NCBI GenBank assembly: GCA_951406725.2
Contig: OX597817.1
Coordinates: 56,730,001 to 56,794,000 of the forward strand
DNA: 64,000 bases
Reading direction: 5' to 3'
Source: Octopus vulgaris
Lineage: Eukaryota
Position numbers and translations under genes: made by a program. This document shows, one piece after another, positions 12,376 through 49,590 of this stretch (positions are counted from its first letter, which is position 1; each line of letters starts with the position of its first letter). Under the pieces are notes generated by a model that made no database searches, was not told the origin of the DNA, and saw only the letters and a program-made list of their open reading frames with translations.

Positions 12376-13144
12376 TCATATGTTGTGGTGTGCGCTATTG
12401 CTCAATTCTAGTTTTCTATTCAGGCTAGGTTTATTTTCTATTATATGTGTAGCTTCTGTAATTTGTCTAATTGTTGCATCTGTTCTATGTGTGGACAATA
12501 TCTTAATCTCTATGTTATTGATTGATCCCCCGTGTTCTTGTTCGGCGTGTTGGTACAGAATCGATGAGCTTTTACCTTCCTTGAGTTGTCTCCAATGTTC
12601 ATTCACCCGCTCACCAATGCTTCTTGCAGTTTCCCCTACGTATGTTACTGTCTTGTTACTGCATCGTCCCTCTATACATCTTATACTATAGACCACATTT
12701 CTGGCTTTACAGTTCGTTTGTGGGCTAAATCTACATACAGTGCAATAGTTATCCGTACAGAGAGTTCTACTAAAAGGATAGCTTCTACCAATTATAGATC
12801 TGATAGGGTTGCCTGGCTTTTCAACAACCTTAATTCTTAGTTTAAGTTTATCTAGGGTCCTTCTAAAGCGGTACGCTAGTTCACCTCCAGGGGTGGTGTC
12901 AACGAACATGACACTCTGGTATTTATGGCTATCATACCAAGAGTTGGCCTTCCCTATTTTCTTTTTGTCCTTTCTATAGTGTTCCATGACTTGTTCCTAT
13001 AGAGTGGGCAAATCCCATTCCTATCATTACATAATATATTATCAAATTTCTTCATGGCTCCTTTGTATACTCTGATCCTTTCTTTATGGCTGTAACCTGA
13101 GAACTGCATGCGGTGAATGAAATACTGTATGTGTCTCTTTAATT
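12376..13144 (-). pseudogene. PLE ORF C-terminal half: RT thumb end, Cys-rich linker and GIY-YIG endonuclease (one frameshift near 12980)
   Basis: ORF 12376-12987 contains CTDNYCTVC...NC, VVYSIRC...YVGETARSIGERVNEH and EATHIIENKPSLN (GIY-YIG hallmarks). An upstream frame gives RMQFSGY...GICPLYR. Confidence 0.9.
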
Positions 13145-47587: not shown

Positions 47588-48309
47588 TTATGTATGTATG
47601 TATGTATATTTGAAATTTTGCGGGTGCATGTGTGTGTTATTGTACGAGTATACACGTGCTCGTTTGTGTCCATACACACACACACACATGCTCAACAACC
47701 AATAACCATTTCCTTCTCTCTGTGTCTCCCTCTCTCTATGTCTCTTTCTCTCTCTCTCTCTTTTTCTCTCTCTCCACACACATGTATATGAATATATGTA
47801 TATATTAATATATATATATTACGTATATGTATATCTATCTATATATATAAACAAACACTCTTCAACAACCAATAACCATTTCCATCTCTCTCTGTCTCTC
47901 TCTCTGTCTCTCTCTTTCTTTCTCTCTCTCCCTCTCTCTCTCCCACTCTCTCTCTCTCTCTACACACACACACATACACACACTTCACATGCTCAACAAC
48001 CATTAACCATTTCCCCCCTCTCTCTCTCTTTCTCCCCACTCTCTCTCTCTTTCTCGGCCACAAAATAAATAATCAAACAAACAAGATCACTTCGCCAAGA
48101 CCATTTCGTCCCCACCTATTAATAACATCATGTAATAATAATTTGTCTTTAGTTTCGAATATCTTTCGACATATATCTGCCTGGCATTTGGTCTGTCTGG
48201 CAGTCTCAGTGTTCATCTAACTATCTGTTTATCAATATCTCAAGCTATACAGCTAAGAATTCTATCTGCATATATGTATATTTGTCTGTTTGTATATAAC
48301 TATAAAAAG

Positions 48310-48335
<26 letters not shown>

Positions 48336-48341
<6 letters not shown>

Positions 48342-48656
48342 CATTGAGAACCACTTCCCATGGCCAACCGGTGGTTGTCACACGCTGATGACGGAAACTC
48401 GGGTCCGTGTGTATCACGTGAGGCTGGAGATGGGAAGGATGACTTCTCTTTGCAAATACTGCTAGGGCACAAATAGTGTGTCAATATGCAGGTGGAGGAT
48501 ATATCTTCCCGCGGCTACAAGTTACAGTAGCATCGACCCTTAAGGGTCAGCCACATTTAGGTGGCAAATATACTTCACGATATCTGTATATAATTCTATG
48601 TATAGATATACGTCCGTTTCTGTACGGCTACGTGAGTATAACTGTGAATCTGCATA
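48336..48656 (+). ncRNA. Highly structured ~320-nt RNA-like element containing a minimal hammerhead (retrozyme-like candidate)
   Basis: About a dozen helices can be read by eye, with wobbles that are G-U on the + strand; hammerhead at 48379-48411. Confidence 0.6.
48379..48411 (+). ncRNA. Hammerhead core lacking stem II (CG linker)
   Basis: CACACG-CUGAUGA-CG-GAAAC-UCGG-GUC/CGUGUG. Perfect 6-bp stem I and canonical core; predicted cleavage after C48405. Confidence 0.7.
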
Positions 48657-48835
48657 AAACAATTTGTTTGTCTATGATTATCCGTCGGTCAAGCTAAATG
48701 GCTGGGCTGGGCTGATCGATTTGTCAATCAATCCATTTCAGACCCTTTGTCTCTCACAGCCTCTCCTCTTTCTTTCGCCCGATATGTGCGTGTGTATGTG
48801 TATGTGTGCGTGCATATGCATGTACATATAAATAT

Positions 48836-49345
48836 ATGGACTACTGCTCACAGCTATGGTCACCCACCAGTGTAAAATTAACAACGGACCTTGAAGCAAT
48901 CCAGAGAAGATTCACAAAGAAGATCGTCTCTTTGCAACAGCTCAGCTACTGGGAAAGATTGAAACAGCTAACACTCTACTCCTTGGAGAGAAGACGGGAG
49001 AAATATGCAGTAATATATGTCTGGAAGATCCTGGAAGGAATTGTGCCAAATTTTGGCATTGTAAGCTACACCAATGCTAGAACGGGACGACACTGCATAG
49101 TGCCAAAGATCCCAGCAATACCATCACGCTTCAGGACCAGCTTCTGCAACAGCCTGGGTTTCGAGGGCCCACAGCTTTTTAATATTCTCCCAAAGAGTCT
49201 GAGGAACTTGCACAAAGTAGATGTAGTGGTTTTTAAATCAAAGCTGGACATCTTCCTATCAAGAGTCCCAGATTAACCTACCTTACGGCAAGAGGTGCAA
49301 ATGAGAGTAGCTATATCAAACTCCATTATTCACCAAGTGCCACAT
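48836..49345 (+). mobile_element. CR1-group LINE 3' fragment (RT thumb region)
   Basis: DYCSQLWSP...LEAIQRRFTK...LSYWERLKQLTLYSLERRRE...QLFNILP...FKSKLD is a typical CR1 ORF2 C-terminus. Confidence 0.88.
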
Positions 49346-49384: not shown

Positions 49385-49590
49385 CGGCGGTGCATCAGCA
49401 TGGCCGCAGCTCTGAGCTGAAACTAGAAAAAAAAATATGTGGTCAGAAACCTGCTTACAAACCACATGGTTCCGGGTTCAGTCACACTGCAAGGCGGCAC
49501 CTTGCGTAAATGTCTTCTATTATAGTCTCGGACCGACAAAAGCCTTGTGAGTAGATTTGGTAGACGGAAACTGGAAGATGTCCGTCGTAT
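49385..49590 (+). mobile_element. SINE family B pieces (3' end then 5' half)
   Basis: GGCGGTGCATCAGCATGGCCGCAG, then CCACATGGTTCCGGGTTCAGTC...GGTAGACGGAAACTG. Confidence 0.72.

Follow-up and report, generated by a model that had tools for sequence, protein, structure and literature searches.

The window, by which we mean the whole analysed stretch of 64,000 nt of the Octopus vulgaris genome (contig OX597817.1, positions 56,730,001 to 56,794,000, forward strand), contains at 48304-48581 a 5′-truncated, stem-II-deleted and likely inactive copy of a non-coding hammerhead repeat (Table 1). Further downstream lie an open frame of 150 aa (48830-49280, + strand), whose translation seems to resemble the C-terminal region of LINE reverse transcriptases, and a SINE-like unit with a (TATG)n tract at its end (about 49430-49590, + strand), presumably resembling octopus SINEs. 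A decayed GIY-YIG end of a Penelope-like element (PLE) lies on the − strand at 12412-12774.

Table 1 Features of the repeat copy and its immediate flanks in the window
Feature	Position	Strand	Remarks
Possible target-site duplication	48289..48303 vs 48583-48599	+	9 exact bases, low complexity, by eye; tentative
Putative retrozyme monomer, 5′-truncated, old subfamily	48304..48581	+	unit positions about 86-358
(TA)n tract	48310..48337	+	TA run internal to the unit, expanded; not the insertion target
Long stem carrying the hammerhead, family-conserved	48336..48458	+	z −4.25 alone; pair counts
Type I hammerhead remnant	48379..48411	+	stem I 48379-84/48406-11, core from 48385
Five family hairpins (48466-82, 48494-509, 48514-31, 48535-48, 48550-65)	48466..48565	+	upstream of the 3′ end
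Family 3′ end without tail	48568..48581	+	putative first start site of reverse transcription
Single-copy flank, outside the family	48582..48656		pairs with the window copy only

The window copy, its ribozyme and its fold

The 5′ edge of the copy was set by eye and the BLAST alignment itself runs from 48326 to 48581. The copy lacks the first ~85 nt of the unit and differs from the family majority at 16 of 254 aligned bases (6.3 %). An earlier note on this locus had described a densely folded RNA module at 48336-48656 lying directly behind the (TA)n tract. The tract is however no boundary, as family copies at this site read ...GGAAAAAG(TA)nTTTGCA and, judged by eye, family sequence goes on upstream of the tract to about 48304. 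On the 3′ side none of the 54 non-self matches among the scored candidates runs beyond query position 278, and a genome search with 48575-48700, which skips simple repeats, returned a single match, the segment itself. The fold of the module stands but its delimitation does not: the 3′ limit of the element is 48581, and the 75 nt that follow within the module are local flank.

Cleavage of the hammerhead is predicted after C48405, and stem III has 2 bp with a near-palindromic loop. Between 48393 and 48394 the copy lacks 12 bases that other family members have, so that stem II, which in the old subfamily comprises 4 bp with a C-A mismatch at its base, is lost. With up to one mismatch allowed, the joined motif without stem II has a single genomic site, the window itself, and a subfamily sharing the deletion was rejected on this ground. 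No hammerhead was returned by an Rfam search of the window, in which nothing reached gathering and just a microsatellite-type miRNA and other chance matches appeared by E-value. Helix II measures 4 bp in the canonical hammerheads of metazoans and is longer in the minimal ones of S. mansoni (PMC4209133). As the window motif fits neither form it is likely dead, and we consider the window copy very probably unable to cleave. The hammerhead of the earlier note is thus present as core and stem I but broken as a ribozyme. The family as a whole, with a stem II of 4-5 bp and a stem III of 2 bp, also departs from the minimal hammerheads of PLEs, whose helix II counts 7-8 bp in the S. mansoni families beside a minimal helix III (PMC4209133), and the window copy has no stem II of any length. 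Being one partial unit rather than two consecutive units with complete hammerheads, it likewise falls outside the two-ribozyme rule of bioRxiv 10.64898/2026.07.22.740005.

The predicted fold of 48336-48656 is strong, at −119 kcal/mol on the + strand (z −5.66, 0 of 100 shuffles as good; z −3.58 on the − strand). By pairing, ten of the 11 helices that we checked form as described (nine of the 11 had been given in the earlier note with coordinates or sequence), the GAGAA/TTCTC helix is paired in the predicted fold, and the G-U wobbles do lie on the + strand. The five family hairpins upstream of the 3′ end are, we infer, a candidate recognition region for a partner reverse transcriptase. The outer architecture proposed earlier uses sequence outside the element: the 3′ arm of the helix said to close a second domain (48485-93/48648-56) falls in the single-copy flank, on which the three-way arm, the 13-bp hairpin and CCGT/ACGG all draw as well. 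The 5′ arm of this closing helix depends on three changes, each present in one of 79 copies, and in the family this segment pairs locally (helix 8); the TATGCAGG arm was found at one genomic site, the window itself.

The 321-nt module might instead be a functional, locus-specific structured RNA, arisen by exaptation of a copy or as a distinct rare variant with a co-evolved 3′ domain. The pairing of flank to copy contributes −16.8 kcal/mol, more than in all 45 other copies and all 397 random flanks compared, seven substitutions cluster within the 26 nt of 48487-48512 with three of them creating the closing helix, and nine of the 16 changes in the copy are transversions against 33 % overall. These controls however overstate the surprise, as the module was picked for good folding; a cluster as dense was present in two of 52 other copies of similar age, the flank alone reaches z −1.4, and the possible target-site duplication places it outside the insertion. 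The stem-II deletion, the arm and the flank are moreover each confined to the window site, and we regard a locus-specific RNA as very improbable. The flank pairing is local and may be due to chance or to a template switch. Derivation of the 3′ flank from a decayed inverted piece of the unit was borderline and not established (equalled by 13 of 500 shuffles for 48582-48660 but by 173 of 500 for 48582-48700), and derivation of the 5′ flank from the missing part of the unit was rejected, 293 of 500 shuffles doing as well. It is the wider family that matters, the copy in the window being a fossil.

A dispersed family with old and young subfamilies

Searching the 2.8 Gb genome in 227 contigs we identified at least 55 matches to the query, itself included, from 40 scored of 3,484 candidates, so that the one copy visible in the window is one of many dispersed copies. 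The unit is 352-358 nt long and circularly permuted, with a majority unit of 358 nt that includes the head-to-tail junction, and many copies are preceded upstream by the unit's own 3′ end. After removal of ten duplicates from 92 loci, before any counts, the 82 distinct loci diverge from the majority unit by a median of 7.2 %. The hammerhead core is kept in 37 of 55 unselected old copies and the old motif pattern has 57 exact matches in the genome. The GC content of the unit is 0.42-0.46 and the longest ATG-initiated ORF in a concatemer encodes 38 aa. A spaced 13-mer pattern for dimers of the old subfamily gave 0 matches, an exact pattern of this kind missing most decayed copies.

A query spanning two ribozymes brought up one array of 9 units and one of 5, which led to further multimers, the tandem arrays having 2-9 units. 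Among 71 monomers we identified a young subfamily, a 353-nt cluster of 35 monomers from 11 loci with a median between-locus identity of 99.1 % and a maximum of 100 %. Its motif has 439 exact genome matches (0 for the reversed control), and a tandem pair was present at 18 of the 61 loci among the first 100 young motifs listed; if these are typical, the genome would contain about 270 young loci. The young ribozyme has a G10.1-C11.1 pair, its stem II measures 5 bp and its stem III is palindromic. The motif is identical in 34 of the 71 monomers, and aligns to the full Rfam Hammerhead_1 model (RF00163) with 32.2 bits and an E-value of 5e-6, below the gathering score of 34. The arrays of 9 and 5 units, L172 (C2, 14.086 Mb) and L173 (C25, 8.52 Mb), carry a U-to-C change in the ribozyme core and flanks other than (TA)n, and are possibly local expansions of an inactive variant.

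The circular folds of two newer monomers scored z −5.8 and −8.2, with the minimum-energy fold of a young monomer retaining stem I and not the active core; for the old subfamily circular folds cover 14 of 30 near-full monomers. Across 15 hand-picked representatives of the subfamilies, whose related rows are not independent events, the fold covaries, 16 of 91 predicted pairs changing on both sides; such pairs occur in stem II and the long stem as well as in two hairpins, one 5′ and the other the last. In an alignment of 61 of the 67 eligible old copies (six were omitted, mostly for large internal deletions) 22 of 73 pairs were double-changed, a count equalled in 0 of 500 shuffles; as a slid control reached 21, old-copy covariation alone is weak and the cross-subfamily covariation carries the weight.

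The family is head-to-tail within the 150-450 nt range of retrozymes, non-coding and below 50 % GC. We are confident that the window repeat represents a family of non-LTR retrozymes travelling as a non-autonomous PLE passenger. The earlier assignment to a retrozyme-type mobile RNA with a type I hammerhead holds in its class, the unit being a permuted monomer of 352-358 nt in place of the module then drawn. Like the animal non-LTR retrozymes of PMC7229834, which include the 350-390-nt repeats of mussels and Rtz_353 of the axolotl, it has a monomer of molluscan size, a GC content under 50 % (42-46 %), a canonical type I hammerhead with a 2-bp stem III, no ORF, tandem copies and a compact fold; the axolotl HHR_Amex2 shares the mismatch at the base of stem II seen in the old subfamily. 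In the present family cleavage is a prediction and circles are a possibility, and the window copy is truncated and without stem II. The further label "viroid-like" gains no support beyond the general likeness of retrozymes to viroids. Family copies are chromosomal insertions with the anatomy of retroelements; viroids replicate from RNA to RNA independently of any genomic copy.

We found no described match to the family, as the earlier note had thought possible, and no cephalopod retrozyme in the literature searched; repeat libraries and supplements may list the repeat under another name. For an octopus, PMC13282606 counts 31 Penelope-like families with recent activity; the word ribozyme is absent from its available text, and its library may contain the repeat. 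By eye, a type I hammerhead-like motif at L208:5301-5352 (C3, near 94.507 Mb), within a palindromic element of roughly 450 bp, represents a second hammerhead family.

Insertion anatomy and the probable Penelope-like partner

Among the 82 loci, a set biased by the queries, the 3′ end falls at unit position 353-360 in 46, lies 22-47 nt further in 25 (at 39-47 nt in 24 of them) and lies elsewhere in 11, giving two fixed 3′ ends about 45 nt apart. An inverted 5′ piece is present at 26 of the 82, an upstream partial unit running into the unit's own 3′ end at 38, and the 3′ flank is TA-alternating at 36 of 71 intact ends against a background of 4.7 %. In 30 loci picked by ribozyme pattern the 3′ ends divide 10, 10 and 10, nine loci have inverted pieces, five have upstream partial units and 8 of 20 have a TA flank. 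Candidate target-site duplications of 8-14 bp were seen at eight of the 82 loci, a count made without a chance control and in which (TA)n targets hide most. Tail, inversion, partial tandem and microsatellite target, the marks of PLE-type insertion, are thus all present, in young loci likewise. The arrangement is that drawn for PLEs in PMC8557442, and PMC11167929 places the PLE tail between two internal start sites of reverse transcription. The two 3′ ends, the inverted 5′ pieces and the (TA)n targets make mobilisation by PLEs, which the earlier note had put forward, likely.

To find possible partners we searched the genome for GIY-YIG domains and obtained at least 148 matches (150 scored of 6,136 candidates), many of them in 781-aa frames that combine a reverse transcriptase (RT, just under the Pfam cut-off) with a C-terminal GIY-YIG domain. 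The linker of this 781-aa family contains a CxxxCxxC motif, the mark of Neptune and Nematis elements (PMC8557442). Its ORFs are 95-99 % identical to each other, the element ends fall at two points separated by 40 nt and run into (TA)n, and the 3′ regions contain hammerhead-like motifs by eye. The Naiads of cephalopods, the other (TA)n-targeting clade, have long been inactive (PMC8557442). Comparison of the unit with 55 PLE loci gave no sequence match, except for one independent insertion in L125, and no common pLTR, and the match to a PLE pLTR that could have overturned the earlier reading was therefore absent from these loci; as nothing in sequence links the two, the partner is named from insertion anatomy only. 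By that anatomy the mover of the retrozyme family is probably Neptune.

Upstream of its main ORF the 781-aa Neptune family carries another frame, separate and about 360 aa long (L121:406-1482); published descriptions give canonical PLEs one ORF. A third Neptune-type family, whose protein shares 57 % identity with the 781-aa one, is inserted directly behind a retrozyme dimer in the same (TA)n tract (L208:2246-4510). A third Neptune family beside L182 was rejected as a pLTR-ORF-pLTR parent as there is no common pLTR.

Alternatively, the unit could be the pLTR of an autonomous PLE from outside the sample, with the copies representing truncated ends and local tandem expansions of them. The anatomy of the copies is that of PLE ends; of 57 Xenopus retrozyme families, 24 matched repeats, 22 in all and 21 of them PLE entries (bioRxiv 10.64898/2026.07.22.740005); and our comparison covered 148 of the 6,136 GIY-YIG candidates and 55 PLE loci. 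However, copies that reach upstream of unit position 1 carry on into the 3′ end of the unit itself (at 38 of 82 loci), upstream flanks are common to distinct loci in five pairs only, by eye other repeats, and neither the 92 old-family loci nor the 26 newer ones have an RT/GIY-YIG ORF joined to the unit. PLE coding remnants do occur near four old loci, but one is separated by other repeats and two lie downstream; the fourth, an old PLE 3′ UTR upstream of L016, belongs to an older family of which 14 other fetched copies have no unit behind them, and was rejected as parent. Two young motifs 3.25 kb apart were also rejected as a pLTR-ORF-pLTR arrangement, since they bracket a satellite and not an ORF. 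We consider a pLTR origin improbable, and the explanation we strongly favour is that the window holds a truncated retrozyme copy of a family likely moved in trans by Neptune-type PLEs.

Neptune-clade PLEs with an endonuclease (PMC8557442; mechanism in PMC11167929 for a Poseidon element) similarly form partial tandems with an optional tail and an inverted 5′-truncated piece, insert into microsatellites and carry a hammerhead near the 3′ end (PMC8557442). The present unit differs in having neither RT nor endonuclease, a tail of about 39-47 nt, and a canonical ribozyme in place of the minimal one (PMC4209133). The MRC1-type non-autonomous elements of Chlamys likewise ride on PLEs, do not encode protein and come as head-to-tail copies and pLTR-like partial tandems (PMC8557442); unlike the present family they generally have 3′ sequence in common with autonomous families and mostly lack canonical hammerheads (PMC8557442). 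Vertebrate retrozymes interpreted as PLE derivatives also occur as monomers, dimers and multimers together with Neptune, but there the link is made through pLTR sequence (in vertebrates, insects and one anthozoan) and here through the insertion signature (bioRxiv 10.64898/2026.07.22.740005). The insertion anatomy resolved here, with two 3′ ends, tail, inversions and (TA)n, was not seen in the available text of PMC7229834, which proposes, and no more, that PLEs move animal retrozymes from circular templates; the mechanism of mobilisation remains to be elucidated according to bioRxiv 10.64898/2026.07.22.740005.

Template of reverse transcription and RNA reads

In the mechanism we propose a tandem retrozyme locus would be transcribed, two hammerheads would pair via their palindromic stem III to make one cut in each unit, and the cleaved monomer would be ligated into a circle. 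The Neptune RT-endonuclease would then nick (TA)n DNA, with reverse transcription starting at either of two internal sites about 170 or 215 nt downstream of the cut site. Copying would pass the cut site, going round once or several times, before stopping early or flipping, and truncated monomers, multimers and inverted 5′ pieces would result. A model of rolling reverse transcription on circular RNA has been given for animal retrozymes in PMC7229834.

Copies that span the ribozyme were copied through the cut site, so their templates were either ligated or uncut. The choice can be approached through variants in a set of 13 young loci drawn from multimer-biased searches. In 11 of the 13 all units of a locus carry at least one variant in common, in five they share variants absent from the other 12 loci, and at L203 and L210 these locus-wide private variants extend to the inverted units; the median number of differences between young units is 2 within a locus and 5 between loci. 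Such sharing within loci suggests a bottleneck of one monomer, as a circular template copied by rolling reverse transcription would impose, and it could be mimicked by unsampled source loci or gene conversion. At L210 a unit-specific variant appears in the same order in the direct and inverted arms. One monomer circle does not account for this pattern, for which the template must have been multimeric or the new strand itself copied; a dimeric circle was rejected here as strict alternation failed.

The competing reading is of a PLE passenger copied from uncleaved linear multimers, with a dispensable hammerhead, no circle, and arrays formed by tandem insertion or unequal crossover. Hammerhead mutants left insertion in vitro unaffected and no reads ended at the cut site in PMC11167929, the 9-mer and 5-mer arrays carry U-to-C in the ribozyme core, L210 has the multimeric pattern, and insertions of the old subfamily rarely reach two units (seven two-hammerhead loci were examined and the pattern search returned 0 matches). 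Set against this are the most canonical ribozyme residing in the youngest subfamily, with its motif identical across nearly half of the monomers, and the private variants common to all units at five loci, the inverted units of L203 and L210 included. We consider the linear template a serious contender of lower probability, and on balance lean slightly towards the circle as the usual template.

Three RNA runs of a related organism contained 326, 319 and 164 reads from the repeat among 12.9, 12.0 and 11.5 million (14-27 per million) on both strands. Reads crossing the end-to-start junction numbered 20, 25 and 12 (57 in total), a junction that tandem DNA gives as well. The earlier note had suggested looking for RNA 5′ ends at the cut site; in these runs, aligned to an old copy at 84 % likeness so that the young subfamily (79 % alike) was largely invisible, no pile-up of read ends occurred there, as the linear template would have it. 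A loose end at L052:1505 recurs in 31, 47 and 28 reads of runs X21-X23 and is a single transcribed locus of the related organism giving many reads. Among sequencing runs that contain the repeat, which bear six organism labels at shares of up to 0.35, none was listed as RNA, a result that speaks neither for nor against transcription.

One genome combines a young high-copy subfamily that bears the two-start-site signature of PLEs with intact Neptune ORFs, within-locus variant sharing offers a means to tell circular from linear templates, and the young subfamily is valuable chiefly as a test system. More speculatively, and in our view possible rather than probable, the lineage is still active, shares no sequence with its mover and is recognised by RNA structure alone, Neptune starting at two fixed sites and rolling round a circle so that each multimer clones one molecule, and the dated subfamilies record a ribozyme improving, from the mismatch at the base of stem II to a G-C pair, as multimer insertion took over. 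If this is true, the family would offer direct genomic evidence for the proposed, unproven life cycle of retrozymes, with enzyme and substrate both named. In contigs of run X1, which may or may not be RNA, the letters of the newer subfamily are favoured at several sites, an observation that carries no weight for expression.
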